Program-made: the position numbers and the translations under genes | The notes under the pieces: generated by a model | Database searches by the model: none | Seen by the model: only the letters and a program-made list of their open reading frames with translations | What the model was told of the DNA's origin: nothing | Origin: an uncultured Elusimicrobia bacterium | GTDB lineage: Bacteria; Elusimicrobiota; Elusimicrobia; 2-02-FULL-39-32 | Direction of reading: 5' to 3' | Assembly (NCBI GenBank): GCA_964523525.1 | Contig: CAZFYO010000003.1 | Location: 92,911-156,910, forward strand | DNA length: 64,000 bases | Shown: positions 23,368 to 44,768 of the stretch, piece after piece | Position numbering within the stretch: position 1 is the first letter of the stretch | How the letters are laid out: every line of letters begins with the position of its first letter

Positions 23368-24572
23368 GCTCCGTATTCGTTCAGCTCTTCCCTGACAAAC
23401 TTCTTCACGAAACCAATCAGTCCCGTTGCTTCTTCTCCGGCGATGCCTTCCTTCAGGGTGTAAAACCGAAGCTCATCCTTGCGGCGGTCATAAGCGGAAA
23501 TCAATACGGGTTCCTTCACGCAGATGGCTCCAGACGGCCGGTCCATGAGCGGAACCATCAGGAGCGGGATGCCCATTCCGCATATCCGCCGGATCAGGAC
23601 GTGCATGAAACGAACCCGATAGGGCGTCCCGAGCGCCAGTTCTTCGGCGAATTCCGAGAGCAGGCGCTCCGCCGATTCCCGAGAAACACCCACCTCTGCC
23701 ATCAGTTCTTTGAGCTTTCCGGCCTGAACGGATGCCAGCCTGCCCTGCACTGCGGCGGAAAAATCATCATCGTGCAGTATCGCTTCAACCCGGGCTTCGC
23801 ATTCCCGTTTGGACAGGGATTTCAGCGATTCGAAATAGATCCGCTGCGCGAACTCGCGGAATACATACAGGATGCGGGTATTGTGGATGACCCCGCCGCC
23901 CACCGCCGCGCAGACCGGGTTCCCGCTCTTTAATCCGCGCAGTATGTTGAAGATTGCTTCCCGGACGTGCGCTTTGCGGAAGAACAGGTTCTGCGCCCAG
24001 GTCCCGCTGCCGGGCATCCGGTCCACCGCGATGAAACCCGAGTGCACCAATCCCGCATAGAGTCCTCCGAGCCAGCCGGGGAGAGTGTCCAGGGCGAAGG
24101 GATCGATGGCCTGCATGACCATCAGGTATTTATTGGGAAAACATTGGCCCGAGGTTTGGACCGTATGGTAGATCAGGTCTCCAAGCCTGTACGCTTCCTC
24201 GTTGGAAGTTTCGGGGTGGGAGGTGATAAAAAAAACTGCGGGTTCCTTTTTGAGCGAGTCACGGGCGCGGCGGCTGAGCGCGGAGACCTTTTCGATATTT
24301 ACCCGGCTGGCAGCGTCCAGCGCCGGGGGCGTCCGTTTGGATTTCAGATGGGTAAAGTGCGCGGTGAGCGCGTTTGCGAAACGGGCGGGAGCCATCCGCA
24401 GGCAGACCATGCCGATGGCGTAGCCGGCCGCGTTGAAAAGGATCTGGAGGGCTTTTTGGGAACGGCTTAAGGCGAAGGGTTTTTTACCGTAGAGTTTGCG
24501 GTCGAGCGTAATGGCGAGCGCCATGCGGCGCGCCTGGTGCTGGTTCCCGCCTTGAACCGAGCGGGCATCCAT
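23364..24572 (-). CDS. Hypothetical protein (402 aa)
   Basis: Long ORF convergent with the previous gene; no recognisable motif from inspection. Coding call rests on length and co-linear frame only. Confidence 0.5.
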   Translation of the reverse strand: MDARSVQGGNQHQARRMALAITLDRKLYGKKPFALSRSQKALQILFNAAGYAIGMVCLRMAPARFANALTAHFTHLKSKRTPPALDAASRVNIEKVSALSRRARDSLKKEPAVFFITSHPETSNEEAYRLGDLIYHTVQTSGQCFPNKYLMVMQAIDPFALDTLPGWLGGLYAGLVHSGFIAVDRMPGSGTWAQNLFFRKAHVREAIFNILRGLKSGNPVCAAVGGGVIHNTRILYVFREFAQRIYFESLKSLSKRECEARVEAILHDDDFSAAVQGRLASVQAGKLKELMAEVGVSRESAERLLSEFAEELALGTPYRVRFMHVLIRRICGMGIPLLMVPLMDRPSGAICVKEPVLISAYDRRKDELRFYTLKEGIAGEEATGLIGFVKKFVREELNEYGA

Positions 24573-24582
24573 GGGGGCCGGA

Positions 24583-25605
24583 TTACCGGTGAACGCCTTC
24601 GATGCGGACGGGCAGAATGTACTTCACGTCGCCGCTTCGCACGAACTTTTCCCAGACGCGCAGAATATCGCCGTCCCACCAGCCTTTTTTAACCTCGTCG
24701 TACATGACGTTGAACGCCCGGTCCATGTCCCAGGCTTCCTTATAGGAGCGGCGGGTGGTGAGGGCGTCGTAAATATCGACGACATTGATGATGCGGACCA
24801 GGACCGAAATCTCGTCCTTTTTGAGGCCGTCGGGATAGCCGGAGCCGTTGAGCTTTTCGTGGTGATGGCGGATGAGGGGGATGGCGTCCTTGGCGGAACG
24901 TAACCGTTCGCAAATCGTGCAGCCCATCACGGGATGGCTCTTCATGATGTCGAATTCATCCTTGGTGAGCGGTCCCGGTTTCATCAAAATGCTGTCGGGG
25001 ATCGCCATCTTGCCGATGTCGTGGAGCACGCCGCCGCGGTCGAGGGTGTCGAGCTCCGCCGGGGTACGGTTCAAAAGCTTGCCGAGCGCGACCGCAAAGC
25101 GCGAAACGCGGTCCGCGTGGCCGAGCGTGTAGGAATCCTTGGCTTCGATGACTCGGGCGAGAGTGAAAATGATGGACTCGGCGTCGTCCAGCTGGTCGTT
25201 GAGCGCTTTGACGCGCAGCAGCGAACGGATGCGCGTGAGCAGCTCCACCGGGCGGTAGGGTTTCGTGATGTAATCGTCCACGCCGGCTTCGAGCCCCTCG
25301 AGCTTCGCGCCCAGTTCGCTTAAGGCGGTCAGCATGATGATGGGGACGAAACGCGTCGCCCGGTGAGACTTCAGCTGGCGCGCGACTTCATAGCCGTTTT
25401 CGCCGGGCATATCGACGTCGAGCAAAACGAGGTCGGGATATTCCTTGATGGCTGTTTCAATCGCGTCAATGCCGTTCGAGGCGATAAACGAATGGTAGCC
25501 GTTATCGATCAGCAGCTGCTGAAGGACTTCAGCGTCGGGGCGGCTGTCGTCCGCGATCAGGATCTTTTTCTGGCGGTGCGGGGATTTATCGTCCAGCGGG
25601 AACAT
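24583..25605 (-). CDS. Response regulator with HD-GYP output domain (putative c-di-GMP phosphodiesterase)
   Basis: N-terminal receiver (ILIADD…LVLLDVDMP…KP) plus HD-GYP motifs (HD…HHEKLNGSGYPDGL). Confidence 0.8.
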   Translation of the reverse strand: MFPLDDKSPHRQKKILIADDSRPDAEVLQQLLIDNGYHSFIASNGIDAIETAIKEYPDLVLLDVDMPGENGYEVARQLKSHRATRFVPIIMLTALSELGAKLEGLEAGVDDYITKPYRPVELLTRIRSLLRVKALNDQLDDAESIIFTLARVIEAKDSYTLGHADRVSRFAVALGKLLNRTPAELDTLDRGGVLHDIGKMAIPDSILMKPGPLTKDEFDIMKSHPVMGCTICERLRSAKDAIPLIRHHHEKLNGSGYPDGLKKDEISVLVRIINVVDIYDALTTRRSYKEAWDMDRAFNVMYDEVKKGWWDGDILRVWEKFVRSGDVKYILPVRIEGVHR

Positions 25606-31767: not shown

Positions 31768-31826
31768 GTCGATGAAATCGTATCATAAATGAAATTGATT
31801 TTGTATGATGTGGCCGAGGCGCCGAC

Positions 31827-32228
31827 ATGACCAGCCCCAACACCAAGACTATTCTGATCGTAGATGACGACGAGTTCATCTGCCTCTTCATCAAAACCAT
31901 CCTTGAAAAAGACGGTTTCAACGTTGCCATCGCCTATAACGGCGAAGAGGCGCTGAAAACCATCGAAACCGCAAGCGTTGACCTGATTTTGCTCGACTGG
32001 ATGATGCCGGTCCTGAGCGGCTTCGACGTTCTTAAAAATTTACAGAACAACCAGGATAAAAGCAGGATCCCCGTGATGGTGGTGACGGCCAGCGTGACGG
32101 ACTCCGACACGGTTTCCTTTATTCGCAAGCAGATGAACGTCGTCGAGTTCATGCCCAAACCCATCGAACACGTCTACCTTTTGCAGCGCGTCCACGAAAC
32201 CTTGAAAACCCAGCCGGAGAAGGCCTGA
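31827..32228 (+). CDS. Stand-alone response-regulator receiver domain protein (CheY-like)
   Basis: Receiver motifs (ILIVDDDEF, LILLDWMMP, conserved Lys in MPKPI); first gene of a four-gene overlapping operon. Confidence 0.75.
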   Translation: MTSPNTKTILIVDDDEFICLFIKTILEKDGFNVAIAYNGEEALKTIETASVDLILLDWMMPVLSGFDVLKNLQNNQDKSRIPVMVVTASVTDSDTVSFIRKQMNVVEFMPKPIEHVYLLQRVHETLKTQPEKA

Positions 32229-32698
32229 TGGCCCTCAAAGATTCGCGCTGGGTGAAGAACGCCCTTTGGATCGCAAGTACCATTGCCATTCTTTACGGGA
32301 TGGTTTATGTTGATGTGATCCTGCGAGCGCGTGAATCCTACATGGAAGGCGAGAAGTATTGGCGCTGGAGCGAGCATCCGGAAGAAAAGTCGGCCGCCTT
32401 GGAGCAGGAGTTTAACAAGGAAAAGGCCGGGCTGGATGAAAAGCTGGCCAAAAACAAATTGACGAAAGACGAGTACGACCGCCGGCTGGAGATCGCGCAG
32501 TTTGACCGCGACCGCAGCCTGGACGAATCGTCCATCAAATACGCCTACGTCTGGTACAAGACCGCTTACGAGCTATTTTCTCCGCCCGAATCCAAATGGG
32601 TCCGGCTGTCCCGCGAAAAAGCCCCTCTCGCCAAGGAAAAGTGGCGCGAGGAACTGCGAGCCAGGAAAATTCCCTTCGAAGAATACATGTTGGATTAG
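32228..32698 (+). CDS. Hypothetical membrane-anchored protein
   Basis: ATG overlaps the preceding stop (ATGA-type coupling); one N-terminal TM helix then a charged coiled-coil-like region. Confidence 0.5.
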   Translation: MALKDSRWVKNALWIASTIAILYGMVYVDVILRARESYMEGEKYWRWSEHPEEKSAALEQEFNKEKAGLDEKLAKNKLTKDEYDRRLEIAQFDRDRSLDESSIKYAYVWYKTAYELFSPPESKWVRLSREKAPLAKEKWREELRARKIPFEEYMLD

Positions 32699-32701
32699 CG
32701 T

Positions 32702-34456
32702 TTGCGCGGACGCGCCGTTCTTCCGATTATTATCCTCCTTCCTCTCCTCTTACTCGCCGCAGCCGTCCGAATCCCGTACATTTACTATTGGGACGTTTTC
32801 TATAACGCCGATTACGCGTTGATGAACCTCGTGGGTTTGCACGCCATGCGGGGCGAGTTTTCCTTCTATCTTTGGGGTCAGAACTACCATGCGGCGGTCG
32901 AGCCCCTTTTGATGGCGCCGCTCTTCAGGATTTTCTCGCCCACGCCGATGGTGGCCGCCGTGATCCCCGCCGTTTTCTCGCTGCTCTTCCTGTTTTTGTA
33001 TCACCGCTATTTGACTCGCGTGACCGATACCTGGACCGCCGGGATTGCGACTCTGATTCTTTGCGTTCCCGCGCCCTTTTTTCTGTCCATCGCGTCGCGC
33101 AACGGAAATTACATCGAGATCTTGTGCCTGGGGATGATTCAGTTCCTGCTTTTTCAAAAGATCATGGAGGGCGACCGGCGTAAATCGCTTTTGCTTCTTT
33201 TCGGTCTGGCGGCGGGCTTTTCCTGGTTTTATCTGCGCCTCATCCTGATATTCTGGGCCGCGATGTTCCTGCATTGGCTTTCCCGGACGCTGGAGCCGCG
33301 CGACTATGACCGCGCCCGCCGGTTCGTAACGTCGCTTTCGCCTTCCATTTTCTGGAACCGCCTGATCTTGCTGCGGGGAGTGGAAGTTCATCCCTGGCTG
33401 CGCATCCCGCTTGCGGTACTCAACATCTATAACCTCGGGAATTTCCTGCTGTCTGCGATTCTCTGGTTTCACGGACCTTACATCCGGATGATCGGGTCCA
33501 CCAAACTGAGCCTGGATTTCTGGCCGCTGCTGGAATCTTCGATTAAGATGACGGTCGCGGCGCTTTTCCTCGTCCATTGGCGCGCACTGCTCGACCGGGC
33601 CAAGGCGGCCTGGCGCGATCCCGTGCTCCGGATGCTTCCCATTGGATTTTTGATCGGCTATTCACCGGCGATCATCGGGATGTTTTTCGGCGAGTTTCCC
33701 GATTCGCGGAACGGGATCGCGAATGCGGCGGAGCTGATCCGCAACTTCAAGCTGGTCGGGGCGTCGCTCCTGCCGATGTTCGCCGGGGAGGGAACGATCT
33801 TGCCGCTCCGGCTGTTCGCCGTCGCCGCGTCGGGGCTGGCGCTGCTGTATTTTTTCCGCGAATTCTTTTCGTCCCTATCCGGCGTGATGGCGCTCGACCA
33901 GAAAACTCCCGACTATTTTCCTCTGCTCTGCCTGGGCGCGGTCACCTTTTTGCTGGGCATCAGCTATGACCGGCTCATCGATCCGTCGACTCTGCGCTAC
34001 TTTTTTCCGCTCTTTTTGTGTCTCCCGGTCGGCCTCGCCTGGATTTTGAAGCGCTTTCAACCGCTGCTGCGCTGGGGAATCTACGGTCTGCTGGCCCTAT
34101 TTCTAGCGAACAGTGTCGATGCGAACATGGAAGCGCTCCGCCGCCATGAAGATCCGCTCCCGCAGCAGGTTCTGGCGGACCGGCTGATCGAGCAGGGCGT
34201 GACGGGAGGTTATTCCAACTACTGGCTGGCCTATTATGTGACGTTCATCAGCCAGGAGAAGCTCATTTTGGTTTCAACGGAGGATCAGGATCGGTACGTG
34301 CCGCATTTGGAGTTTGTGCGAGGGTTGGAGCGTCCGGTATTTGTGGGGGAACCGCATCCGGGTTCCGGAACCGAAGTTACGATTAAAGGGACGCATTATC
34401 GTGTGACCCATTCTGAAACCATCGCCGGGACAGCGGTCGCTTATCTTGAGAAATGA
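32702..34456 (+). CDS. Large polytopic membrane protein (possible GT-C-like glycosyltransferase; function uncertain)
   Basis: 584 aa with more than ten hydrophobic helices and a large periplasmic-like C-terminal domain; the glycosyltransferase call is an architecture-based guess only. Confidence 0.6.
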   Translation: MRGRAVLPIIILLPLLLLAAAVRIPYIYYWDVFYNADYALMNLVGLHAMRGEFSFYLWGQNYHAAVEPLLMAPLFRIFSPTPMVAAVIPAVFSLLFLFLYHRYLTRVTDTWTAGIATLILCVPAPFFLSIASRNGNYIEILCLGMIQFLLFQKIMEGDRRKSLLLLFGLAAGFSWFYLRLILIFWAAMFLHWLSRTLEPRDYDRARRFVTSLSPSIFWNRLILLRGVEVHPWLRIPLAVLNIYNLGNFLLSAILWFHGPYIRMIGSTKLSLDFWPLLESSIKMTVAALFLVHWRALLDRAKAAWRDPVLRMLPIGFLIGYSPAIIGMFFGEFPDSRNGIANAAELIRNFKLVGASLLPMFAGEGTILPLRLFAVAASGLALLYFFREFFSSLSGVMALDQKTPDYFPLLCLGAVTFLLGISYDRLIDPSTLRYFFPLFLCLPVGLAWILKRFQPLLRWGIYGLLALFLANSVDANMEALRRHEDPLPQQVLADRLIEQGVTGGYSNYWLAYYVTFISQEKLILVSTEDQDRYVPHLEFVRGLERPVFVGEPHPGSGTEVTIKGTHYRVTHSETIAGTAVAYLEK

Positions 34457-35160
34457 AAAAGTTTACCTGGGGTCTCATCCTCCTGCCTTTTGGTCTCGCT
34501 ACTTTTTACGAATTGCCTGCGCTCCTATTCGTTTTGCGCGCGCAGGTGCCGCCCCTGATGTGGCTGGCCGGGGGAGCGGTCGCCTACTGCGCGTTTGAAG
34601 TCATTTTCAGCCGGCCGATGCGGACTTATGTTTTCGGCCACGAGCTGACGCACGCCATCGCCGGTCTCGCCGTCGGGAGCAAAATCCATTCGTTCAAGGT
34701 TTCGAAGAAGGGCGGCAGCGTCACCATGTCCAAATCCAATTTCGTGATCGCCCTGGCGCCCTATTGCGTTCCTCTTTACACGTTCGGCGCGCTCGCGCTT
34801 TATGCGGGGCTGAGCTATTTTTATCCGCTTCCCTATTTGTCAGAAGGCGCGCAGTTTCTGGTCGGCGCCACGCTCGCGTTTCACGTCTCGCTGACGCTGT
34901 ACGCAGTCCAGCAGCGCCAGCCCGACATCCACAAGACGGGACTGTTTTTCTCCGCGATTTTCATTCTGATGATCAACGCCTGGGTTCTCGTTGGCTTGGC
35001 CAAAATTCTGTTCTGGAACGACGTTTCCCTGCGGGATTTTGCGATGCGGACGCTCCGGACGCAGAACGAAATATGGGTCTGGTCCGCGCACCGCGCTTAT
35101 GAGGGCGTGATGTGGGGGTTCAGCTCGTTGAAGTCTTTGAAGGTTCCGTCGGCTCACTGA
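34453..35160 (+). CDS. Integral membrane protein with HExxH motif (putative intramembrane metalloprotease-like)
   Basis: HELTH motif at the edge of a TM helix (YVFGHELTHAIAGL); overlaps the upstream stop by 4 nt. Confidence 0.55.
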   Translation: MKKFTWGLILLPFGLATFYELPALLFVLRAQVPPLMWLAGGAVAYCAFEVIFSRPMRTYVFGHELTHAIAGLAVGSKIHSFKVSKKGGSVTMSKSNFVIALAPYCVPLYTFGALALYAGLSYFYPLPYLSEGAQFLVGATLAFHVSLTLYAVQQRQPDIHKTGLFFSAIFILMINAWVLVGLAKILFWNDVSLRDFAMRTLRTQNEIWVWSAHRAYEGVMWGFSSLKSLKVPSAH

Positions 35161-36101: not shown

Positions 36102-36244
36102 TCCATGTCCCTGGAAATCTCTTTTCGGACGGAGTCTTTGGATTTATTGCGGCGGTACAACTTGTCGCTTTCCTTAACTTTGGTGGCGGGTTTGGTCTTC
36201 CAGGTCCGGCGCACCTTGATGGCGCGCTTTTTGTTTCTTGGCAT
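36098..36244 (-). CDS. Candidate small basic protein (48 aa, MPRNKKRAIKVRRTWKTKPATKVKESDKLYRRNKSKDSVRKEISRDME)
   Basis: Not in the ORF track (below length cutoff). ATG at 36244; TGA overlaps the ATG of the downstream lipoprotein gene. Overlaps the 3' end of the VanZ-like ORF in another frame, so only one of the two readings can be fully correct. Confidence 0.25.
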   Translation of the reverse strand: MPRNKKRAIKVRRTWKTKPATKVKESDKLYRRNKSKDSVRKEISRDME

Positions 36245-36554
36245 TTCTTAGATCATAATAAAAACCGATCATGGCTCCAAGAGAATCGATGAACACGTCG
36301 CGGATGGTTCCCGTGCGGCCGAAAACGAAGGATTGGTGCCACTCGTCGCCGGCGGCGTAAAGGACGACAAGGACGAAGCTCAGGAGGAAATGCCAGCGCC
36401 AGAAATCCGGCCGGGTCTTTTGGACCGCTCCGTGGATCAGAACGAACAAAACGGCATACTCCAAAAGATGGGCGATCTTGCGGGCAACGAAATTGAGGGC
36501 GCCCAGCCAGCTGTCCAGTTCGCGGTAGGGCCCGTAGTCCGGCCGGGACGACAT
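36174..36554 (-). CDS. VanZ-family membrane protein
   Basis: VanZ-like hydrophobic core (…HLLEYAVLFVLIHGA…LYAAGDEWHQSFVFGRTGTIRDVFIDSLGAMIG); the C-terminal 20-25 codons overlap the small basic ORF and may be over-extended. Confidence 0.6.
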   Translation of the reverse strand: MSSRPDYGPYRELDSWLGALNFVARKIAHLLEYAVLFVLIHGAVQKTRPDFWRWHFLLSFVLVVLYAAGDEWHQSFVFGRTGTIRDVFIDSLGAMIGFYYDLRNAKKQKARHQGAPDLEDQTRHQS

Positions 36555-36622
36555 ATAAAATATCAGGCAGCACCAGGCGAGCGCCTTGATCCAGGCGATA
36601 AGGAGGTCCTGTTTCGGGGAGG

Positions 36623-37102
36623 TCAGTTGACGGCGGCGCGGCGCGCCTGGGGATTGAGGCGCCGCATGATTTTGGCTTTACGTTCTTCGGAGGTGGCGGG
36701 CCAGGCAAAATGTTCGGGAACATCGAGAGGAATCGTGATCGTCATGCCGGCCTCGAGGTGGTCGAAATCGCCGATCTTTTCCTCGTTGGCCTTCCAGATG
36801 TCGTACCAGCGGCGTCCCGCGCCGAAATGTTCCGGCATCTTGGCGATTTTCCAAAAAGTGTCGCCCTTTTGAACGGTGTAGTTGACGGGGACGGGCAGAG
36901 CCGCTTGCGCGGAGGGGGAAGCCGGCCGCGACGCGCTATCGGTCGAGGAGGCCACGGTTTCGGACTGACGCTGTTCTTCCATCCGCAGGGCTTCTTCCCT
37001 GAGCTTTATCTCTTTCTTCTTCTGCTTGAAATAATAATGGCCCGAAAACGCGAGCGCGCACATCAGGAAAAGTCCGAGCAGGTGCAGTTTTGTAATTCTC
37101 AT
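36623..37102 (-). CDS. LysM-domain protein, membrane-anchored
   Basis: N-terminal TM helix; LysM motif (YTVQKGDTFWKIAK…WKANEEKIGDFDHLEAGMTITIP). Confidence 0.7.
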   Translation of the reverse strand: MRITKLHLLGLFLMCALAFSGHYYFKQKKKEIKLREEALRMEEQRQSETVASSTDSASRPASPSAQAALPVPVNYTVQKGDTFWKIAKMPEHFGAGRRWYDIWKANEEKIGDFDHLEAGMTITIPLDVPEHFAWPATSEERKAKIMRRLNPQARRAAVN

Positions 37103-37132
37103 CTCTAAATTCTGTTTTCTCCGTGCCTCGGA

Positions 37133-38248
37133 TTATCTTACAACATTTTCCTTGGACAGTTTTTCGCTGACTTGAATTCCCATCCGGATGCTGTCCGCCA
37201 AACCCTTGAAAATGACGGCCACGATATAGATGATGAGGCCGACGAGCAGCGAACCGAAGACCGCGAAGATAAAATTTTGCGTGATGAAGCTGATGAACAC
37301 AACCACCGCCATGACGACGCCCGTGGTCGCGGAGAGCCAGGAAAGATACTGGAACGCGTTGGAAATGAGTTCCAGGCCGCGGAAGGGCGTGACGGTGATC
37401 TGATCGCGGGTCGCGGCCACCTGAAGCGCCGCGCCACAGGTCGCGCAGTACCAGGCGCGGAGGCCGTTTTCCGACTGGCAGTGGTCGCAGACCTTCTTGC
37501 TGCTTTCGCCGAGCTGTCGCCGTTTGAATATGTAGAGTTTTTCGGCGATGCCGAGCACGAACCATTGCAGAACGCCTACCACGCCGCCCGCGCAAAGCTC
37601 GAGGCTGCGTCCCACGGCCCAGGACAGGTTCTCGCGGCCGTGAATCTCGATCAGCATCGCGCCGTACATCTGCGCTCCCACTCCGCCGCCCAGCATCCCG
37701 CCGACGAGTCCGCCGATGGTTCCGGCCAGAATTTTGCTCTTCGTGCCTTCCAGGATGCCGCTGGTGAGCCCCAGCATCGCGCCGGCGATGCCCCAGGCGC
37801 CCGCCATGGAGAAAGAATAGCTGTAGAGATAACCGGTAAAAATTTGTTTGAAGTGCGGGTATGAAAGGCTGCCGAGAAGCCCGCCCAACGCGCCCAGGAT
37901 ACCGCCGAGAAAACATTTGTAGGTGGATCGCTCGATCATGCCGCCGACGGTGCCGATGAAACAGCCGGCGACCGCGGTGGAAAGGGGAATTTGTCCGGGA
38001 AAATAGTCCAGCGTGCGGGCGAAGGCGTCGGTGGAGACGCTTTCAAACTGCAGAGTGCGCGCGATGGCGATGGCGACCGTGCATCCGACCGCTCCCGCGG
38101 AGAATCCGCTGAGCGCGCGGCGCGCCACCCAGCCGAAATTACCGATGACCTTCGCGACCTGGATGCTGCGTTGGTTGATGGCGATGCCGCAATGCGTGCA
38201 ATGCGCCGGACGGTCTGCTAAGGACTCGCTGCAGCTAGGACAGATCAA
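37133..38248 (-). CDS. Membrane protein with two zinc-ribbon motifs and Gly-rich helices
   Basis: CPSC…CTHC at the N-terminus and CDHC…CATC internally, separated by Gly-rich hydrophobic segments; 371 aa. Confidence 0.6.
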   Translation of the reverse strand: MICPSCSESLADRPAHCTHCGIAINQRSIQVAKVIGNFGWVARRALSGFSAGAVGCTVAIAIARTLQFESVSTDAFARTLDYFPGQIPLSTAVAGCFIGTVGGMIERSTYKCFLGGILGALGGLLGSLSYPHFKQIFTGYLYSYSFSMAGAWGIAGAMLGLTSGILEGTKSKILAGTIGGLVGGMLGGGVGAQMYGAMLIEIHGRENLSWAVGRSLELCAGGVVGVLQWFVLGIAEKLYIFKRRQLGESSKKVCDHCQSENGLRAWYCATCGAALQVAATRDQITVTPFRGLELISNAFQYLSWLSATTGVVMAVVVFISFITQNFIFAVFGSLLVGLIIYIVAVIFKGLADSIRMGIQVSEKLSKENVVR

Positions 38249-38263
38249 TGGTTCGGCTGAAGA

Positions 38264-38527
38264 TCACTTCTTGCCGGCGGTTAAGGAAAGAATCTCGATG
38301 AGGGTGCAGACGGTGCGGAGGGTGGCGATGTGAATTTCGTCCGTCGGGGCTTCGTTGAAAATAGCCTGATTGATCTGGGAGGATTCCTGATCGAAGTTTC
38401 TGCGAAAATCCTTCAGGGATTTTGAGGAGTCGTCGTATTGCGCCCGGTTTTCTTCGACGCTTTTTTTAATCTGGTCCAAGATCGACGATAAATCCTTCCC
38501 GTTCATCGTTCCGTTGGAAGCTGCCAT
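38264..38527 (-). CDS. Hypothetical small protein (87 aa)
   Basis: ORF between the BatD-like gene and the zinc-ribbon membrane gene on the same strand; no family recognised. Confidence 0.4.
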   Translation of the reverse strand: MAASNGTMNGKDLSSILDQIKKSVEENRAQYDDSSKSLKDFRRNFDQESSQINQAIFNEAPTDEIHIATLRTVCTLIEILSLTAGKK

Positions 38528-38580: not shown

Positions 38581-41226
38581 TCAGATTTTCTCGAACGCGT
38601 TCTTCCCGATCCACCCGCGCACGCCGGCTTTGGGGATGCCGATCTCGGTCCATTCCGCGTCGTCGCGCTCGTTTAAAATCAGGACGCGGCGGCCTTCTGG
38701 AACGGTGAAGCCGACGCGGAACCTCTGGCCGGGGCCGGAGCGCACTTCCGCGCTTTGCTGGGTGATCACGGCTTCGGTTTGAACCTGTTCGCGGTAAACC
38801 CGCCCGATCCACCAGGCGCCGATCATTATGAAAAACGCCAGCGCCAGAAAAGCCCTGGCGCGGAAGAGCGAGTTTCCGGAAAATAAAATCAAAGTCCAGT
38901 AGATGCAAAGTCCCCAGAATGACATGAGATAGAGGATCGAAAGCTGGTTCAAATTGAGGATGTGAGCCGCGCGATAAAGCATGCGAGTCAAAAACGATTC
39001 CGGCTCGAAGGTTTCGCCAGTTTGAACGCCGACGAGCTGGAGATTGCTTTTTAGATCGGCGTCTGCCGGCTTCATGCGCCGCGCTCTTAACCAATGGGCG
39101 ATGGCCTTTCCGTTCATCCCCAATTTCTGATAGGTGTTGCCCAAATTGTATTCGACGGCAAAGTTTGGTCCGGTTTCCATCGCAAGCGATTCGTAAAGCG
39201 CCCGGGCATTTTCGAATTGGCCGGATTGATAATAATTGTTAGCTTCTTTGAAGGCATCGGCGGGGCTTTGCGCAGAGTTTTGTGATTGCGCGATTGTTGC
39301 ACCTGCTGCAATCAGCAACGGGATGAAAAACGGAAGCAGTATTGCCGCAAGCCGGTTAGATTTTTTCTTATCGCCTCCCTTCGCGACGGACTTCATGCTT
39401 TTTCGCAGTTCGGAGTCGATTTCTTCGATCAAATTTCGCGCTTCGCCCAGCAAACGGTCCGCGTCCTGTGTGCGGAATTGGGCTGGCGCGTAGCTGGCGA
39501 GCTCAAATTCGCTCCAGATTTTCTGCAGGCGCGATTTAAGCGTGGCCGCGGTTCCCGGGATTGCTGCGTGAGCTTCCAGAAACGCCGCAACGCTTTTTGA
39601 AGAGAGCGATGTTTCGCGCGACAGCATTTTATCGGCAAAATAGTCCTGAAACGCCTGGAAAATCCGGCCCGTTGCGTCTGCATCCTGCGTCCGGATCGAC
39701 TTAACCGCCGCATTCCATTTCCCGAGCGCCCCGCTCGCGCGTCTCCGCTCCGGATCCCGCGCGATCCAGGCCAATCTCACCCGGCGCCCGATGCCCGCCA
39801 GCAGTCCGAGCGCCGGCAGGAGGTGCAGAATTAAAAACAGCGGCGTTTTGTTCAGCCATCGGAAAGGTTTCAGCTCGCCTTCCTGCTTGATGTAGCTGAT
39901 CTCGCGGCTGACATTGGCGATCTGCGGCGCCATCGATCCGGGCCCGATCGCAAAGGTCTGCGATTTGCCCGGCGCCACTTCAATGGACAGCGCCTGCGTG
40001 GTCAGCGTCTTGTAGGATTTTCCGGGCAGATTAAAATAGCTGAATTTAATCGGCGCGATGTTGTGCGTGCCCGAAGTCTGCGGCACGAGCACGATCTTGT
40101 AAACCTTTGATCCCTCAACAAACCCCTTGGACTTCTCGATGTTCAGAGAACTCGCGGTATCGTATTTGCGGAAGCCGTCGAACTCGGGGAAAACAGGATC
40201 GCCCAAAGCCTTGATGTTGCCCTTGCCGCTGATCGTGAGCGTCAGGGTCAAGGGTTCGCCGACGGACGCTTTGCGTTTGTCGGCCATGATCGCAACGTTG
40301 AATTCGCCGACGCCGCCCGAAAATCCGTCCGGCTTTCCGGAGGGAAGGGGAACCGCGGTTAATTTGGCGGGATCGGACTTCAGCATATACTCCCGCGCGC
40401 CGCCGCCGAAAAACTGCTGGAAAATATCTTCCTGCGATCCGCTGAAATCCTGCACCGCGATTTTCAGCTGCGCGGGAGAAAGCGTTAAAGCGCCGTCGCG
40501 CGCGGGAAAAAGCGCGGTTTTGATTTCGGTGACATTATAAGGAACGCCGCCCACGCTTTCCGTAAAATTGCGCGGCGGCGGAAGGTCTTCGGTCAAAAAC
40601 CCGGAAGTGTCGGGCGGCTGGTAGTTTGGATTTGCGACCATGCGAACGCGGTAATAAAAACGGAACGCCATCGTGACCTGCTCATTGACGTACGCTTTCG
40701 GTTTGTCCAGGGATAGTTTCACGAACGCTCCAGGCGCCTGGCGGTTTCCCTGCGCGGCATTCCCCTGCGCTCCACCGGCTGCGGGAGCGGGCGCAGCCTG
40801 ACCCGCGGGCACGACTTCGATCGCGATGGGTTGAGACTGGGCCGTTTTGCCGTCCAACGTCGCGCTGAAAGGCCCGATCGTGAATTTGCCCAGGCTCTTC
40901 GGGGAAAGCATATAGGTGAAGTTCACTGACGAAGACATTTTTCCGTTTACGAATGACACATTTTGCGCCTGTCCGGAGGGGTAGACGGAAAATGCGGAAA
41001 GGTCGGGCATCTGCGGCTGGGGCATGCTCGCCGCGTCTCCCGCGATGGTCACGAGCAGCCGGACGGAATCGTTCAGAGCGACCTGCGTCTTGTCGGCGCT
41101 CGCCGATACCGTGAGATCCGCGGAAGCGCGCGCGGTCAGCGCGCAGGCGAGCAGAGCGGATGCGCAGGCCGCGCTAAAAATTTTTCCGAATGCGCGTTGG
41201 TTCAATTTACCAGTCTTCGTCATCAT
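38581..41226 (-). CDS. BatD-like oxygen-tolerance family protein fused to TPR and a C-terminal SH3-like domain
   Basis: 881 aa: signal peptide, BatD-like repeated beta-rich region, TM helix, TPR-like segment (ANNYYQSGQFENARALYESLA…), further TM helices and a C-terminal SH3b-like tail; last gene of the MoxR-DUF58-VWA operon. Confidence 0.7.
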   Translation of the reverse strand: MMTKTGKLNQRAFGKIFSAACASALLACALTARASADLTVSASADKTQVALNDSVRLLVTIAGDAASMPQPQMPDLSAFSVYPSGQAQNVSFVNGKMSSSVNFTYMLSPKSLGKFTIGPFSATLDGKTAQSQPIAIEVVPAGQAAPAPAAGGAQGNAAQGNRQAPGAFVKLSLDKPKAYVNEQVTMAFRFYYRVRMVANPNYQPPDTSGFLTEDLPPPRNFTESVGGVPYNVTEIKTALFPARDGALTLSPAQLKIAVQDFSGSQEDIFQQFFGGGAREYMLKSDPAKLTAVPLPSGKPDGFSGGVGEFNVAIMADKRKASVGEPLTLTLTISGKGNIKALGDPVFPEFDGFRKYDTASSLNIEKSKGFVEGSKVYKIVLVPQTSGTHNIAPIKFSYFNLPGKSYKTLTTQALSIEVAPGKSQTFAIGPGSMAPQIANVSREISYIKQEGELKPFRWLNKTPLFLILHLLPALGLLAGIGRRVRLAWIARDPERRRASGALGKWNAAVKSIRTQDADATGRIFQAFQDYFADKMLSRETSLSSKSVAAFLEAHAAIPGTAATLKSRLQKIWSEFELASYAPAQFRTQDADRLLGEARNLIEEIDSELRKSMKSVAKGGDKKKSNRLAAILLPFFIPLLIAAGATIAQSQNSAQSPADAFKEANNYYQSGQFENARALYESLAMETGPNFAVEYNLGNTYQKLGMNGKAIAHWLRARRMKPADADLKSNLQLVGVQTGETFEPESFLTRMLYRAAHILNLNQLSILYLMSFWGLCIYWTLILFSGNSLFRARAFLALAFFIMIGAWWIGRVYREQVQTEAVITQQSAEVRSGPGQRFRVGFTVPEGRRVLILNERDDAEWTEIGIPKAGVRGWIGKNAFEKI

Positions 41227-42868
41227 CCTTCTTCTTGTTTTTGTTCTTGGGGTCCGGCTTGAAAATTGGTTTGTCGCCGTTATCGCCCGCCGCGCTCTTC
41301 AAAACGCGCTTTGCGTTCTCTGCTTTGTCCTTTTTTTTGTCATCTTCTTTCGCTTGCCCGCCCTGCCCCTGTTTTTGGTCCTTATTTTTATCATTCTGCT
41401 TGTTCTGATGTTGTTGCTGCGGCGGGTTGCGCATATATTGCAGTGACAGCTTCAAATTGTGGCGCGCATCCGCATCGTAAGGGCTCAGCTTGAGGCTTTG
41501 CTTGTAGGCTTCGGCCGCTTCCTGATATTTTCCCTGCTGAAAATATGAATTCGCCAGATTGTACAGCGACTGCGCGCTCAAGCCCCGGCTGCTGCCGATG
41601 GCGCTCTTTTGAAACTCTTCCTGCGCCCCTTCAAAATTGTTCATTTTGTAGAGCGCCCCGCCCCGGTTGAAGTTCGCGCGCCGGTCGGAAGGCTTTTCCT
41701 TTTGCGCTTCATTGTAACTTTCCGCGGCCTCCGAATACATCCCTTCATCGTACTGCTGGCCGCCCCGGCGCATTTTGTCGCGGAATCCGGCGGCGTCCGA
41801 ATTCGAGGGAAGCATCGTGAATCCAAGGCCGAACAGAATCAGAAGAGCGGTAATTGCGGAAAATCCAGACGGTTTTTTGCGCGGCAGATAGGCCAGCGAT
41901 TCGGCGCTAATCAGGCAAAGGAGGCCGATCAAAAGGAACCATTGATAGCGATTTTCATAAACGTTTTTGCGTTGCGTGAGCGTATTGCCGCCGCCATGCA
42001 GTTGATCGGCCAGCAAATCGATTTCGGATTCGGCGTCCGAGGCGCGGTAGTAAGAGCCGCCGGTTTCCGTGGCAATTTTGGCGAGGGTCGCTTCGTCCAG
42101 GCGGCTCAGCACGACTTCGCCGTTCTTTTGCTTGCGATAACCCGTCACGCTGCCGCTTCCATCGCGGATCGGAATGGGTTCTCCCTCCGGATTGCCGATA
42201 CCGATCGCGAAAATACGGATGTCCTGCTCCTTGGCTTCCTTCGCCGCGCCTTCGGGGTCGGATTTGTGGTCCTCGCCGTCGGTCAGGAGCACGATGGATC
42301 CCGAGCCGCGCTCGCCGCCCATGCGCTCGAGGGCGAGGCGGATCGCGGTGCCGATGTGCGTCCCCGGCTGCGGCACCATGCCGGGCTCGATGCCTTTCAG
42401 AAATTGCTTGGCGGTGGATAGATCAAACGTCATCGGGCAGTAAACGTAGGCTTCGCCGGCAAACGCGATGATGCCGACGCGGTTGCCATGCATCTTTTCC
42501 AGCAGCCCGGTGAGCATGCGCTTGGATTTCTCAAGGCGGGTGGGCTTAAAGTCCTCGGCCAGCATGGAGTCCGAGCAATCAAAGAGGATAAAGACGTTGC
42601 CGCCTTTAATCGTGATGGTTTCAAGTTTCTGTCCGACCTCGGGACCGGCCAACGCGAGGACGACAAAGAAGAGCCCGGCAGCAAGCAACGCATACTGGGT
42701 GAGCGTTCGGGAGCGCCAGGCGGCGAATGGGAAAACCTTTTCGATCAGCCCGAAGTCTATCAAGCCGCGCAGCGCGCCGCTCCGCGACTTTACGCTCCAG
42801 AGCAGCGCTCCGAAGAGCAATGCCAGGGGAATCAGCCAGAAGAATTGCGAGGAATGCGCGAGGTCCAT
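41207..42868 (-). CDS. VWA-domain protein with TPR repeat and charged low-complexity tail (BatB-like)
   Basis: N-terminal TM helices, VWA MIDAS motif (DCSDSM), TPR (YNLANSYFQQGKYQEAAEAYKQSLKLSP), C-terminal K/D/N/Q-rich tail. Confidence 0.8.
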   Translation of the reverse strand: MDLAHSSQFFWLIPLALLFGALLWSVKSRSGALRGLIDFGLIEKVFPFAAWRSRTLTQYALLAAGLFFVVLALAGPEVGQKLETITIKGGNVFILFDCSDSMLAEDFKPTRLEKSKRMLTGLLEKMHGNRVGIIAFAGEAYVYCPMTFDLSTAKQFLKGIEPGMVPQPGTHIGTAIRLALERMGGERGSGSIVLLTDGEDHKSDPEGAAKEAKEQDIRIFAIGIGNPEGEPIPIRDGSGSVTGYRKQKNGEVVLSRLDEATLAKIATETGGSYYRASDAESEIDLLADQLHGGGNTLTQRKNVYENRYQWFLLIGLLCLISAESLAYLPRKKPSGFSAITALLILFGLGFTMLPSNSDAAGFRDKMRRGGQQYDEGMYSEAAESYNEAQKEKPSDRRANFNRGGALYKMNNFEGAQEEFQKSAIGSSRGLSAQSLYNLANSYFQQGKYQEAAEAYKQSLKLSPYDADARHNLKLSLQYMRNPPQQQHQNKQNDKNKDQKQGQGGQAKEDDKKKDKAENAKRVLKSAAGDNGDKPIFKPDPKNKNKKKDDDEDW

Positions 42869-42869
42869 G

Positions 42870-43856
42870 TCAGGGCACCGTCTTCCAGACCGTGGCTTCG
42901 AGCAGCGCGGCCGTAAAAATGCAAGCCATCGCCGCGATCAGCAGGCCGAGATATGCATCGTGAACTTTGGAAGTGGACTCAATGTCAATTTTGGTCTTTT
43001 CCATCGCATCGATCTCGTTATAAATCTCCTTAAAACGTTTGGCGCTGGTGACGCGGAAATATTTGGCGTTCGTCACGCGGGAAATTTCGAGCAGGGTCGT
43101 TTCGTCCAGATCTTCCGCCATTTGGACGAGGCGTTTTCCAAAAACGGGGTCTTCAACCGGAACGACGCCGCCGCCCGGCACCGCGGTTCCGATCGCATAG
43201 ATTTTGATACCTAAATCTTTCGCCGCGTTCGCCGCCGTGACCGGATCGATGTTCCCAACGTTGCTCCGCCCGTCCGTCAGCAGAATCACAATTTTCGTTT
43301 TCGCTTCGCTTTGCGACAGCAGGTTCGCGGATGCGGCCAGCGCCGTTCCAATTGCGGTCCCATCCGTCTGCGTCGCGTTCATCGGAATCGTCTTCAGAAA
43401 ATCCCGCAGCGTTTCGTGGTCCAGCGTCAGCGGGCATTGCACAATCGCCCTGCCGCCGAACACCACGAGTCCGATGCGGTCGTAAAGCCTCTTGCTGATG
43501 AACTCATCGGCCGCCTTCTTCGCCTGATCGAGCCGGTTCTGCGGATCAAAGTCCAGCGCCGACATGCTCATGGACGTGTCGAGGCAGAGCACAATGTCCA
43601 CCACCGGTTTGGGCGGCTCGTTCATCTTCGATACCGTTTGTGGCCGCGCCAGCGCGACAATCATCAGCGAAAATGCCACGAGCTTCAACACGTCCAAAAT
43701 CACCTCTTCCTTATGATAAGAAACCGCATGGGCCTTCACGAGCGAAAGGTCGGAATAGGTGAGCGCGGGTTTGTTTCGGCGCGCGGTAAAAATCCACCAG
43801 GCCCAGAGCGCCAGGGGAATGAACGTTAAAAACCATTCGGGATTAGCCCACCGCAT
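42870..43856 (-). CDS. VWA-domain membrane protein (BatA-like)
   Basis: Two N-terminal TM helices, VWA MIDAS motif (DTSMSM), C-terminal TM helix. Confidence 0.8.
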   Translation of the reverse strand: MRWANPEWFLTFIPLALWAWWIFTARRNKPALTYSDLSLVKAHAVSYHKEEVILDVLKLVAFSLMIVALARPQTVSKMNEPPKPVVDIVLCLDTSMSMSALDFDPQNRLDQAKKAADEFISKRLYDRIGLVVFGGRAIVQCPLTLDHETLRDFLKTIPMNATQTDGTAIGTALAASANLLSQSEAKTKIVILLTDGRSNVGNIDPVTAANAAKDLGIKIYAIGTAVPGGGVVPVEDPVFGKRLVQMAEDLDETTLLEISRVTNAKYFRVTSAKRFKEIYNEIDAMEKTKIDIESTSKVHDAYLGLLIAAMACIFTAALLEATVWKTVP

Positions 43857-44766
43857 GGGTTTTCCTCACGAAGTCCTGAATTTTGGCGAAGTCGTCCTCA
43901 ATTTCCTTGGCGGACGGCGCGAATTTGGCGAACTTTACCAGATCGCATTGGGATAGCAGGTCTTTTGATTCCAGATTAAGCCGTCGATCGACATTCGCAT
44001 TCTTCATGGCCGAATAAATTTCCGACGTGGTTTTCTCGAGGCTGTCGAAATTAAACCGCTTTCCCAGATATTCGCGGAAGATGTCGGAGAGCGCCGCATA
44101 AAACTCCTTTAATTGGCCGGAAGATTGATAGGCGGCGCGCGCGGCCTCCAGTTTTTCCAAAATCACTTGATCGAGCGGGCGCGGCGGTTCGGGCGGCGTA
44201 ACCATTTCGGGGGTCGCTAACTGGCGCTGGCGGCGGTAATGGATCACGGCGGCAATCCCGGCCAAAACCAGCGCCGCAACAATCCAGGGCCAGATGGGGC
44301 CGAAGCGGATCGGCTCTTTGATATCGCGCAAACCTTCCTGCGGAGCGCCGGGCGTGGGCGCCGCCGCGGGCGCGACCGTGATTTTAACCGGCGGCGATTG
44401 AATGAAGCCCGATCCACCCTTCCCTTTATAAGGAATGGAGAGGCTCGGAATGTCGAACGTCCCTTCGCCGAGCGGCAGGATGTCGATCTGAATCATCGAT
44501 GCCCACTGCCCGCCGGATTCTTTGAAAGGTGCGGTCTTGGCGCGGAGAAATTGCAGGTCTTCGATGGAGGGGAGCGCGACGCTGGAAATCGAAATGTCCT
44601 GATTGGATGTGATGTAAATGTTCAGGCCCGCCGGATCCGCGACCGCGAGCGTCGTGGAGGGCAACACCTCATTCCGCACGGAAAATATTGCCTCTGCCCT
44701 AGCCGCGTCAGGCGAACCTATCGCGCAAAAAATACCGGCGACCCAAAGAATTGCGGATAGCTTCAT
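43843..44766 (-). CDS. Hypothetical secreted/membrane protein of the MoxR operon (DUF4381-like position)
   Basis: Signal peptide, Pro-rich linker, one TM helix; sits between DUF58 and VWA genes as in Bat-type operons. Confidence 0.55.
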   Translation of the reverse strand: MKLSAILWVAGIFCAIGSPDAARAEAIFSVRNEVLPSTTLAVADPAGLNIYITSNQDISISSVALPSIEDLQFLRAKTAPFKESGGQWASMIQIDILPLGEGTFDIPSLSIPYKGKGGSGFIQSPPVKITVAPAAAPTPGAPQEGLRDIKEPIRFGPIWPWIVAALVLAGIAAVIHYRRQRQLATPEMVTPPEPPRPLDQVILEKLEAARAAYQSSGQLKEFYAALSDIFREYLGKRFNFDSLEKTTSEIYSAMKNANVDRRLNLESKDLLSQCDLVKFAKFAPSAKEIEDDFAKIQDFVRKTHAVG

Positions 44767-44768
44767 GG

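Follow-up and report, generated by a model that had tools for sequence, protein, structure and literature searches.

Known intramembrane metalloproteases are gated by a PDZ or CBS domain or by an inhibitor protein, and the site-2 protease SpoIVFB is encoded beside its partners BofA and SpoIVFA. The pairing of ArnD, of the deacetylase family, with ArnT, of the PMT_2 family, is also a known pathway. Nearly all Elusimicrobiota have yet to be cultured, and hardly anything is known about the biology of their cell envelope. To our knowledge, a receiver domain and a TPR-like protein have not been described as partners of M50 enzymes; a literature search returned no report of an M50 enzyme with such partners and no functional study of a bacterial PF13398 member. 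Here we describe an operon of this composition in a 64-kb window, the whole stretch of DNA that was analysed, which holds the following features.

31827–32228, + strand: receiver gene, 133 aa, a single-domain response-regulator receiver without an output domain (PF00072)
32228–32698, + strand: P2 gene, 156 aa, a membrane-anchored TPR-like protein
32702–34456, + strand: GT-C gene, 584 aa, TTG start, a probable divergent PMT_2/ArnT-type glycosyltransferase, assigned via its relatives
34453–35160, + strand: M50B-like gene, 235 aa, a polytopic membrane protein with an HExxH motif (HELTH), a putative intramembrane zinc metallopeptidase (PF13398)
31768–31826, no strand: AT-rich spacer of 59 nt between a divergent GATase_4 gene (minus strand) and the receiver gene
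18062–19150, + strand: Trm112-type zinc-finger/SAM methyltransferase (Pfam), outside the operon here
19147–19836, + strand: polysaccharide deacetylase (Pfam), outside the operon here

An ORF check found the four + strand genes of 31827–35160 exactly where the preliminary description had placed them, and the public annotation of the identical Logan contig contains the same four gene calls. The genes had been said to overlap by 1 to 4 nt, which holds for two of the three junctions: the receiver and P2 genes share 1 nt (TGATG) and the GT-C and M50B-like genes share 4 nt (ATGA), but P2 and GT-C are separated by a 3-nt spacer (TAG cg TTG). The 59-nt spacer upstream is presumably the promoter region of the operon, and a scan for the sigma-70 consensus found nothing in it, with region-wide counts at chance level. 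The four-gene operon stands as proposed; since dozens of genomes carry the arrangement amid different neighbouring genes, it is more than a product of chance.

We examined the linkage in a set of 82 non-redundant P2 loci, whose shared ancestry means that the counts are not independent events. The receiver gene lies directly upstream of P2 on the same strand in 52 of the 82 loci, with a median gap of -4 nt; 33 of these pairs overlap, and a 4-nt overlap is the commonest junction. Downstream of P2, 75 loci offer at least 1.5 kb of sequence, and 53 of these have an M50B-like gene there in the same orientation; in 28 it immediately follows P2 (median gap 3 nt). The receiver-P2-M50B-like triad is found in 35 loci, strictly adjacent in 22. 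About a third of the P2 loci have no adjacent receiver, and about 30% of those with enough sequence have no nearby M50B-like gene (17 of 57 when at least 6 kb of downstream sequence is available). The close relatives of the window share its whole neighbourhood, from YajQ to DZR, while across the set the flanking genes vary widely and some P2 proteins are only 32–50% identical to that of the window; a MAG labelled Candidatus Endomicrobium trichonymphae (L055) keeps the order receiver-receiver-P2-M50B. From these linkage counts, therefore, the conserved core is, on present gene orders, receiver-P2-M50B-like, recurring across the Elusimicrobiota. The four genes had been taken as one unit, of which the linkage of these three is borne out, but the GT-C gene is inserted only in some lineages. 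Gene-neighbourhood analysis also places the receiver with the P2 gene set and not with another two-component pair, and neither of the two membrane proteins has a match in a well-characterised housekeeping family.

Of the proteins in the set, P2 is the best conserved, and the linkage centres on its gene. Its best 120 relatives are 55–85% identical, and named relatives are almost all from Elusimicrobiota. The preliminary description of a membrane-anchored coiled-coil protein was right about the single N-terminal hydrophobic helix, but the all-helical predicted model (pLDDT 92.5) has a fold resembling TPR-like repeats rather than a plain coiled coil. The window P2 has no Pfam match at E up to 0.1, the 120 relatives listed have no precomputed Pfam match, TPR sequence profiles are not matched, and no Pfam or NCBIfam model covers the protein. 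The C-terminus, IPFE[DE]YM[LI], is almost invariant, and four residues where the membrane helix ends (Y23, D29, V30 and R33) do not vary, which seems to exceed the needs of a simple anchor. The N-terminal tails are basic, being some 20–45 aa long in some proteins and about 6–10 residues in most family members, and the P2 N-terminus is probably in the cytoplasm with the TPR-like domain in the periplasm. Conserved, almost phylum-restricted and without a family model, P2 is a good signature gene for Elusimicrobiota and a candidate for an important envelope function.

The receiver matches PF00072 with 90 bits (cut-off 30.2; E = 1.5e-25) over residues 9–122 of 133, which leaves no room for an output domain and agrees with the CheY-like, output-less receiver first described. 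The phospho-acceptor residues D13/D14/D15, D57, T87 and K111 are present; D57, T/S87, K111 and the acidic pocket are kept in all 50 P2-linked receivers. The receiver is duplicated in tandem in one clade, and in all 13 double-receiver loci the second copy keeps the acceptor Asp, acidic pocket, T/S and Lys. Against an HMM of P2-linked receivers, the window receiver reaches 191 bits and the two other receivers of the window 117 and 101 bits; P2-linked receivers form a subfamily of their own. The NCBIfam matches of the window receiver include the DivK-type DVU0259 model. That the window lacks a histidine kinase, as had been claimed, is confirmed at three levels: an HMM built from HATPase_c proteins adjoining relatives had no match in the 64 kb, a six-frame translation contained no G1/G2-box pattern, and a Pfam scan of 29 different window proteins returned no kinase family. 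A giant ORF from 58467 lay outside the Pfam scan but within the HMM and six-frame searches, and two minus-strand window proteins (23364–24572 and 56042–57391) had no Pfam match and count formally as unassigned. In 11 other loci, a HATPase_c protein is encoded upstream of P2. The conserved, often translationally coupled linkage and the invariant phospho-acceptor residues thus point to control of the module by the receiver.

For the HELTH protein, the preliminary guess of a peptidase family (M50, CPBP or M48) is supported by 35 of 38 relatives, which match PF13398 (E up to 0.01, best 1.7e-8); 7 match PF02163, and the family matches of the relatives are to peptidase models only. The window protein itself reaches 25.2 bits against PF13398, just under the cut-off of 26, over residues 58–118 only. 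Ten residues are invariant in the 38 sequences (H63, E64, H67, G88, P103, Y104, H144, Q156, D158 and S167). The HELTH motif had been placed at a helix boundary of a polytopic protein; the protein is polytopic, and the motif (residues 63–67) lies inside a predicted helix (58–73). The AF2 model has a pLDDT of 95.4; two of its top three Foldseek matches in the PDB are entries of SpoIVFB and the remaining one is the M. jannaschii site-2 protease, all weak and without significant global similarity. Using hhalign, residues 60–84 align with residues 19–43 of RseP, that is, the HExxH helix and the following strand, whereas a profile search of PDB sequences retrieved no M50 entry. The LDG/NxxPxxxxDG motif is absent, its nearest counterpart being N96...P103-Y104...P107 without DG, and H144 or D158, both invariant, are candidates for the third zinc ligand. 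By the positive-inside rule, the HExxH motif, a Lys-rich hairpin, H144 and D158 are all predicted on the cytoplasmic side. Hence, the protein probably belongs to the uncharacterised M50B-like family PF13398, with a similarity to site-2 proteases that is local only.

The 584-aa protein has no Pfam match and none to PF13231 at E up to 1. However, PF13231 (PMT_2) is matched by 7 of the 8 family members (best E = 6.5e-9), including relatives 59–70% identical to the window protein, in line with the earlier guess of a GT-C family. A hydropathy scan gave about 11–13 hydrophobic segments up to about residue 452, followed by a charged C-terminal tail of about 130 aa (132), a soluble domain; the protein is thus polytopic as described, but the "large" extracytoplasmic domain attributed to it was generous. 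The first loop (31–69) contains 4 acidic residues and 1 basic residue and is presumably extracytoplasmic, and the Asp of its [NS][AS]D motif is conserved in every subfamily member having this region. Sequence searches found no solved relative and only 8 relatives in all, a very small subfamily, through which the protein is best read as a divergent PMT_2/ArnT-type GT-C glycosyltransferase. In L008, L014 and L019 the same operon slot holds PMT_2 genes from another subfamily, in L082 a related, end-truncated gene directly follows P2, and in L060 and the P0060 contig a PMT_2 gene comes after the M50B-like one. Judged by gene order, GT-C has been inserted between P2 and the M50B-like gene in particular lineages only, and the repeated recruitment of PMT_2 genes to the same slot suggests a regulated surface glycosylation step.

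The neighbours of these loci suggest where such a module might act. Polysaccharide deacetylases are present in 21 P2 loci, CdsA-like proteins in 18, an ABC transporter pair in 16–18, an AsmA/YhdP-like protein in 10, GT4 in 9, and TamB directly upstream in 6. Recurrent orders are M50B-like, CdsA-like, deacetylase; M50B-like, 200-aa protein, deacetylase, PMT_2; M50B-like, methyltransferase, deacetylase; and M50B-like, CdsA-like, ABC pair. In two relatives, a gene pair equal in size to the methyltransferase and deacetylase pair of the window comes immediately after the M50B-like gene: L007 has, by annotation, a methyltransferase (363 aa) and a deacetylase (230 aa) there, and L019 has genes for 363 and 229 aa, matching the L007 order by gene size only. 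The window deacetylase scores 306 bits against an HMM of deacetylases adjoining the relatives' loci; it lies 12.6 kb from the operon, and CdsA-like and ABC genes are absent from the window. In metagenome contigs without receiver or P2, the M50B-like gene sits beside PyrE-like, PtsN, ArgRS, CoaE and LptFG genes, with LptF/LptG adjoining it. PanD is within the operon in 29 loci, SdhB and SucC also occur there, often with 4-nt overlaps, and the operons of relatives have genes for dihydropyrimidinase-type amidohydrolases and for a GGDEF protein interspersed among the others. The recurrent neighbours point to envelope biogenesis; however, since unrelated housekeeping genes also sit in the operon, often with 4-nt overlaps, adjacency alone is weak evidence of shared function. 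The preliminary proposal of a phosphorylation-controlled envelope modification or proteolysis module is therefore upheld in its envelope theme, while proteolysis, glycosyl transfer and phospho-control are parts of it that we infer.

We tentatively favour, at somewhat less than an even chance, a phosphorylation-controlled cell-envelope module that would be the local version of an Elusimicrobiota-wide gene module. A kinase encoded elsewhere would phosphorylate the receiver at D57, and the receiver, because it has no output domain, would act by protein contact at the cytoplasmic face of a membrane complex, supplying in trans the regulatory domain missing from the minimal M50B-like enzyme. P2, inserted with its N-terminus in the cytoplasm, would dock its conserved membrane helix on this enzyme, with the TPR-like domain serving as a periplasmic adaptor or sensor. 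The M50B-like protein would cleave or otherwise hydrolyse a membrane-embedded target near the cytoplasmic leaflet, and the output of the module may tune envelope biogenesis, including the polyprenyl-phosphate-sugar-dependent glycosylation by GT-C, which in this lineage would be co-transcribed between P2 and the M50B-like gene. Gene structure, family assignments, linkage and the conservation of catalytic and phospho-acceptor residues are direct observations, from which we infer interactions, topology, enzymatic activities and physiological output. Against this mechanism, a periplasmic TPR-like domain would be out of the receiver's reach, which makes the tight receiver-P2 coupling harder to explain.

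A more far-reaching form of this proposal, which we consider improbable, is that P2 and the receiver are a largely Elusimicrobiota-confined invention placing a minimal site-2-protease-like enzyme under direct phosphorelay control, with the receiver as in-trans regulatory domain, P2 as periplasmic TPR adaptor and the enzyme governing outer-membrane and glycolipid biogenesis, a role taken from the AsmA/TamB, PMT_2 and deacetylase context. If true, it would be a kind of regulated intramembrane proteolysis new to the literature.

Synteny without shared function is a rather unlikely alternative, in which the genes are kept side by side through descent in compact operons while the M50B-like protein is a housekeeping membrane enzyme, the receiver is part of an unrelated phosphorelay and P2 has a separate role. 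It would account for the interleaved PanD, SdhB, SucC, amidohydrolase and GGDEF genes with their frequent 4-nt overlaps, for the M50B-like gene among housekeeping genes in contigs lacking both receiver and P2, for the 17 P2 loci without a nearby M50B-like gene, and for the shared YajQ-to-DZR neighbourhood of close relatives. Nevertheless, the linkage persists where all flanks differ and P2 identity is 32–50%, a 4-nt overlap is the commonest form of the receiver-P2 junction, the P2-linked receivers are a subfamily of their own, and the slot after P2 is taken by two PMT_2 subfamilies and, in L054 and L076, by a different intramembrane protease (Rce1-like) instead of the M50B-like gene.

Two other explanations keep a shared function and change the chemistry. 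With an Arn-like logic, the M50B-like protein could be a metal-dependent membrane hydrolase acting on a polyprenyl-phosphate-linked glycolipid intermediate, together with GT-C, the deacetylase, a CdsA/dolichol-kinase-like protein and the ABC transporter, and with receiver and P2 as regulators. The ArnD-ArnT pairing is a precedent, and the recurrent orders with CdsA-like, deacetylase, PMT_2, methyltransferase and ABC genes and the weak fold match to site-2 proteases would fit; yet the HExxH motif with its invariant Glu and the strand aligning with RseP are a peptidase signature, only peptidase models match the family, the window has no CdsA-like or ABC genes and keeps its deacetylase 12.6 kb away, and we know of no enzyme of this family that acts on lipids, so that we would give this explanation little credence. 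Alternatively, P2 could be the substrate, a type II single-pass protein whose membrane helix the M50B-like enzyme would cut, perhaps once a site-1 cleavage in the periplasm has recognised the conserved C-terminus. Site-2 protease substrates have the N-in orientation favoured for P2, both the helix end and the C-terminal tail are conserved, and a periplasmic PDZ lipoprotein gene follows P2 in L021, with genes of the same cluster in L017 and L024. However, the cytoplasmic tail of about 6–10 residues in most P2s would release no effector, P2 has no sigma/anti-sigma signature and no Pfam match, and the most conserved protein of the set fits a stable partner better than a sacrificial substrate, making this highly improbable.

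In summary, comparison with known systems separates what the module may share with them from what sets it apart. With ArnT and other PMT_2 GT-C enzymes, the 584-aa protein shares a polytopic architecture, a soluble domain at the C-terminus and a conserved Asp within an acidic first loop; its relatives match PF13231, and polysaccharide deacetylase genes recur nearby. It differs in lying below PF13231 detection, in a subfamily of 8 relatives, and no equivalents of ArnC or ArnE/F were identified at this system. The TPR adaptors that work with envelope proteases, as in LapB(YciM)-FtsH, NlpI-Prc and BepA, offer only an analogy to P2: the soluble part of P2 amounts to only about 120 residues, the protein has neither a Pfam TPR match nor a rubredoxin domain, the charges of its tails speak for the orientation opposite to that of LapB, and its partner protease is of another family. 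The receiver resembles CheY, DivK and Spo0F in its size of 133 aa, its complete phospho-acceptor residues and its missing output domain, so it must act through protein contacts or phosphotransfer. In contrast to these proteins, it has no chemotaxis, phosphorelay or kinase genes beside it, and it is translationally coupled to a membrane protein, with a tandem duplicate in one clade. For further work, the module offers a starting point in the few cultured Elusimicrobiota.

A further comparison is with the site-2 proteases RseP, SpoIVFB and M. jannaschii S2P. The M50B-like protein shares with them a polytopic architecture, an HExxH helix followed by a beta-hairpin, as aligned with RseP, and a predicted catalytic site near the cytoplasmic leaflet; as with SpoIVFB, its gene adjoins that of a small membrane-anchored partner. 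It differs from them in lacking the NxxPxxxxDG/LDG motif and any PDZ or CBS regulatory domain, and in having a receiver domain and a TPR-like protein as partners. If the receiver gates the M50B-like enzyme, this would be a new control mode for intramembrane metalloproteases and the first functional handle on PF13398.

An ORF check confirmed the four + strand genes that the preliminary description had read from the sequence as a receiver-led operon of membrane proteins, and the gene calls are identical in the public annotation of an identical Logan contig:

31827-32228, + strand, receiver (133 aa)
32228-32698, + strand, P2, a membrane-anchored TPR-like protein (156 aa)
32702-34456, + strand, GT-C, a putative PMT_2/ArnT-type protein (584 aa, TTG start)
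34453-35160, + strand, M50B-like HExxH (HELTH) membrane protein (235 aa)

The four genes form a tight operon. Overlaps had been described throughout; they are present between receiver and P2 (1 nt, TGATG) and between GT-C and M50B-like (4 nt, ATGA), whereas P2 and GT-C are separated by a 3-nt spacer directly before the TTG start. On its 5′ side, the operon lies 59 nt from a GATase_4 gene on the minus strand, and at its 3′ end it overlaps a convergent TPR gene by 7 nt. Scans for promoter and terminator consensus sequences gave counts at chance level, Rfam found no RNA element near the operon (the sole tRNA of the window is at 49407-49479) and PADLOC returned no anti-phage defence match beyond generic receiver similarity. 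The G+C content of the window averages about 57-58%, as read off the composition table, and named homologues come nearly all from Elusimicrobiota MAGs. Other features of the window include:

36174-38527, minus strand, conserved string of VanZ, a LysM protein, a 371-aa double-zinc-ribbon membrane protein (Gly/Ala-rich) and an 87-aa protein
38581-46686, minus strand, gene run beginning with an 881-aa BatD-like protein
51214-52974, minus strand, AceK isocitrate dehydrogenase kinase/phosphatase
53131-54732, malate synthase
54713-56035, isocitrate lyase
58467-63998, + strand, very large ORF (>1,840 aa) that runs past the window end

The VanZ-LysM string co-travels with the operon in close relatives. 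The run that follows it looks like a Bat/MoxR-type aerotolerance operon, an assignment based on synteny with two homologous loci, L003 and L005 (Pfam: BatD, VWA-TPR, BatA-VWA, DUF58), and on phmmer labels. The three genes at 51214-56035 make up a glyoxylate-shunt cluster; AceK is described mainly in Proteobacteria, and its presence in an apparent Elusimicrobiota genome may be worth a look.

In close relatives, the four-gene order is kept along with the whole neighbourhood. Since such synteny alone proves little, we gathered 80 genome loci around P2 homologues, nearly all labelled Elusimicrobia or Endomicrobia, called their ORFs and labelled these by means of HMMs derived from the window proteins and from relatives. 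A receiver lies directly upstream of P2 on the same strand in 52 of 82 non-redundant loci, with a median gap of -4 nt and 33 overlapping pairs. In 75 loci, the sequence continues for 1.5 kb or more beyond P2; 53 of these have an M50B-like gene downstream in the same orientation. It comes immediately after P2 in 28 loci (median gap 3 nt). All three occur together in 35 of the 82 loci, strictly adjacent in 22. These counts are lower bounds, because at least one receiver (in locus L008) escaped the crude ORF calling, and they are not independent, because the loci are related by descent; the linkage is nevertheless seen despite widely differing flanks and with P2 identity down to 32-50%. The preliminary description is confirmed as to the genes and supported in part as to their interpretation: what recurs across Elusimicrobiota as the actual unit is the triad of receiver, P2 and M50B-like, and GT-C is a lineage-specific insert into it. 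Proteins of 356-388 aa upstream of P2 in five loci were also tested as receivers and are not.

The window's GT-C subfamily was seen in only a handful of loci. A different PMT_2 subfamily fills the same slot in three loci (L008, L014 and L019); our own GT-C HMM, built from eight sequences, missed it, and Pfam searches on individual neighbours were needed. In a further locus (L082), a related, end-truncated gene directly follows P2, and a PMT_2 gene lies 3′ of the M50B-like gene in locus L060 and in the P0060 contig. The window GT-C itself matched no Pfam model, and a family-profile search for solved relatives gave nothing meaningful. However, seven of its eight detectable relatives match PF13231 PMT_2 (best E = 6.5e-9), and by this family membership it is a putative, divergent PMT_2/ArnT-type enzyme. 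By hydropathy, some 11-13 predicted membrane segments extend to about residue 452 and leave a charged tail of 132 aa; the first loop (31-69) is acidic and holds an Asp that is conserved across the whole subfamily. Other large inserts between P2 and M50B-like are not GT-C proteins; by Pfam they are amidohydrolases, PD-(D/E)XK-GAF-GGDEF proteins or Cys-rich proteins. In some Endomicrobia (L045:2211-4019 and L047:10192-11985), the insert is a PD-(D/E)XK nuclease-GAF-GGDEF protein of about 600 aa, and a Cas4-like nuclease fold with a diguanylate cyclase in one protein is an unusual combination. The proteins of about 580-600 aa near M50B-like genes on metagenome contigs, suspected to be GT-C, turned out to be ArgRS, ProRS, sulfatase or acyl-CoA ligase.

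The receiver matches PF00072 over residues 9-122 of 133 (E = 1.5e-25) and is predicted to be a competent phospho-receiver, as the acidic pocket (D13-D15), the acceptor D57, T87 and K111 are all present. D57, T/S87 and K111 are conserved in 50/50 receivers encoded ahead of P2 and likewise in 13/13 second receivers of a clade with tandem receivers. An HMM of P2-linked receivers gave the window receiver 191 bits, against 117 and 101 bits for the other two receivers of the window:

20445-20825, minus strand, orphan receiver (126 aa), without a kinase nearby
24583-25605, minus strand, REC-HD-GYP protein, without a kinase nearby

The gene after the latter (23364-24572, minus strand) encodes a 402-aa protein with no Pfam match. 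In line with the preliminary description, a search of the 64 kb found no histidine kinase.

P2 lies outside every described family. It has no Pfam or NCBIfam match, and none of the 120 listed relatives (55-85% identical to the window P2, from 358 detectable ones) carries a Pfam domain; the few of those listed that have names bear the label 'hypothetical protein' or, in one case, 'uncharacterized membrane protein'. When 1.84 billion cluster representatives were searched with a profile, only 111 matched. In the alignment, a single N-terminal hydrophobic helix with an invariant end (Y23, D29, V30, R33) is followed by a variable middle and a strongly conserved C-terminal half terminating in IPFE[DE]YM[LI], and the AF2 model is all-helical and confident (pLDDT 92.5). 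P2 is regarded as a strongly conserved membrane-anchored TPR-like partner. Across 95 family members, the membrane helix is flanked by a net charge of +2 on the N-terminal and about -0.5 on the C-terminal side, and in several relatives the N-terminus is drawn out into a basic tail of 20-45 aa; because of these charges and tails, an N-in orientation with a periplasmic TPR-like domain is probable. In some relatives (P0234, P0249, P0254, P0277 and others), the protein continues past the conserved ...YMLD into a further C-terminal domain of about 80 aa, for example 'TLMVYSTR...GLKVIVPREKFWEAHEAL', which has no Pfam match and, by eye, resembles small beta-alpha-beta signalling domains.

The M50B-like protein falls just below the PF13398 cut-off (25.2 bits vs 26, residues 58-118), and 35 of its 38 relatives match this family, with seven matching PF02163. 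In this HExxH membrane protein, the putative metal ligands are invariant: the invariant residues include H63, E64, H67, G88, P103, Y104, P107, Y109, H144, Q156, D158 and S167, with H144 or D158 as candidate third ligands. Loop charges place the HExxH motif, a Lys-rich hairpin, H144 and D158 on the cytoplasmic side. The AF2 model (pLDDT 95.4) begins with two helices, followed by the HExxH helix (58-73) and a beta-hairpin (78-92); more helices come after these, and the C-terminal one is long. Solved relatives were sought by family profile, with nothing meaningful; Foldseek against the PDB gave weak matches (E = 0.03-0.36, TM about 0.2), the top ones being SpoIVFB (two entries) and the M. jannaschii site-2 protease, and hhalign paired residues 60-84 with residues 19-43 of E. 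coli RseP, the catalytic helix and following strand.

In a separate metagenome scan centred on this protein, with contigs lacking organism names, only two of the 40 longer loci also carry P2. In the others, the gene adjoins PyrE-like, PtsN, ArgRS, CoaE or LptF/LptG genes, and in three without P2 and receiver (L106, L107 and L110) it comes after a pair of genes, one of about 391-394 aa and the other of about 360-361 aa. Among these, Pfam confirmed the 361-aa gene of L110 as LptF/LptG, a hint that the family may be connected with the outer membrane or LPS in general. From these contexts without P2, the M50B-like gene is widespread and looks housekeeping-like, its coupling to receiver and P2 being seen only in P2-carrying contigs.

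Linkage of the triad with envelope-biogenesis genes recurs. Recurrent neighbours in the P2 loci include polysaccharide deacetylase (21 loci), a CdsA/dolichol-kinase-like protein of about 199 aa (18), an ABC transporter pair (16-18), an upstream HATPase_c kinase-like protein (11), YdjM (10), an AsmA/YhdP-like protein (10), GT4 (9) and, directly upstream, TamB (6). Two Endomicrobia MAGs have ClpB/C-like and TamB genes before P2 and, after it, not M50B-like but the gene of an Rce1-like (CPBP) intramembrane protease (L054, 8430-9305; L076, 8456-9319); here a protease of another family may have taken its place. In the window, genes for a Trm112-zinc-finger SAM methyltransferase and a polysaccharide deacetylase lie at 18062-19836, 12.6 kb upstream of M50B-like. 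A methyltransferase-deacetylase pair of the same size follows M50B-like by annotation in locus L007 and by gene size only in L019, which suggests a rearrangement in the window's lineage.

Conservation of the triad is striking; the functions of its members we infer. The receiver, phosphorylated by a kinase encoded elsewhere, would act on a complex of P2 and M50B-like from its cytoplasmic side, in the role of the regulatory PDZ or CBS domains missing from the minimal M50B-like enzyme. The conserved P2 helix would dock in the membrane, with the TPR-like domain working in the periplasm; the enzyme would then cut a membrane-embedded target, and the output would tune envelope glycosylation or lipid homeostasis. 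As a whole, this chain from kinase to envelope is a tentative proposal, plausible but short of an even chance.

The three genes could also share synteny without a shared function. Other genes are indeed interleaved with them (PanD, Sdh and SucC), and PanD is an immediate neighbour of P2 on one side or the other, in many cases with a 4-nt overlap, in 29 of the 83 loci with P2 (L010, L015, L017, L021, L024, L043, L046, L057 and others), which may reflect a real link or hitch-hiking in the operon; we consider synteny alone rather unlikely, yet a serious alternative. A pathway for lipid-linked glycans, with the HExxH protein as something other than a protease, is improbable, and it is more doubtful still that P2 is the proteolytic substrate, a role weakened by its very short cytoplasmic tail. 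If the phospho-controlled complex is the correct reading, two-component control, a membrane metalloprotease-like enzyme and envelope glycosylation would meet in a new combination around an unannotated protein family.

Our literature searches returned nothing on a receiver-P2-M50B-like module (including searches for Elusimicrobia response regulators and metalloproteases, and for single-domain receivers with site-2 proteases) and no functional study of a bacterial PF13398 member. Unlike the M50 family, the M50B-like protein does not contain the defining LDG motif; because of this and the weak fold match, we place it in the uncharacterised PF13398 and not among bona fide site-2 proteases. The pairing of P2 with this protein recalls the TPR adaptors of envelope proteases (LapB-FtsH, NlpI-Prc and BepA), as a functional analogy only. 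In its working, the module would come closest to a site-2 protease that is assisted by membrane partners.
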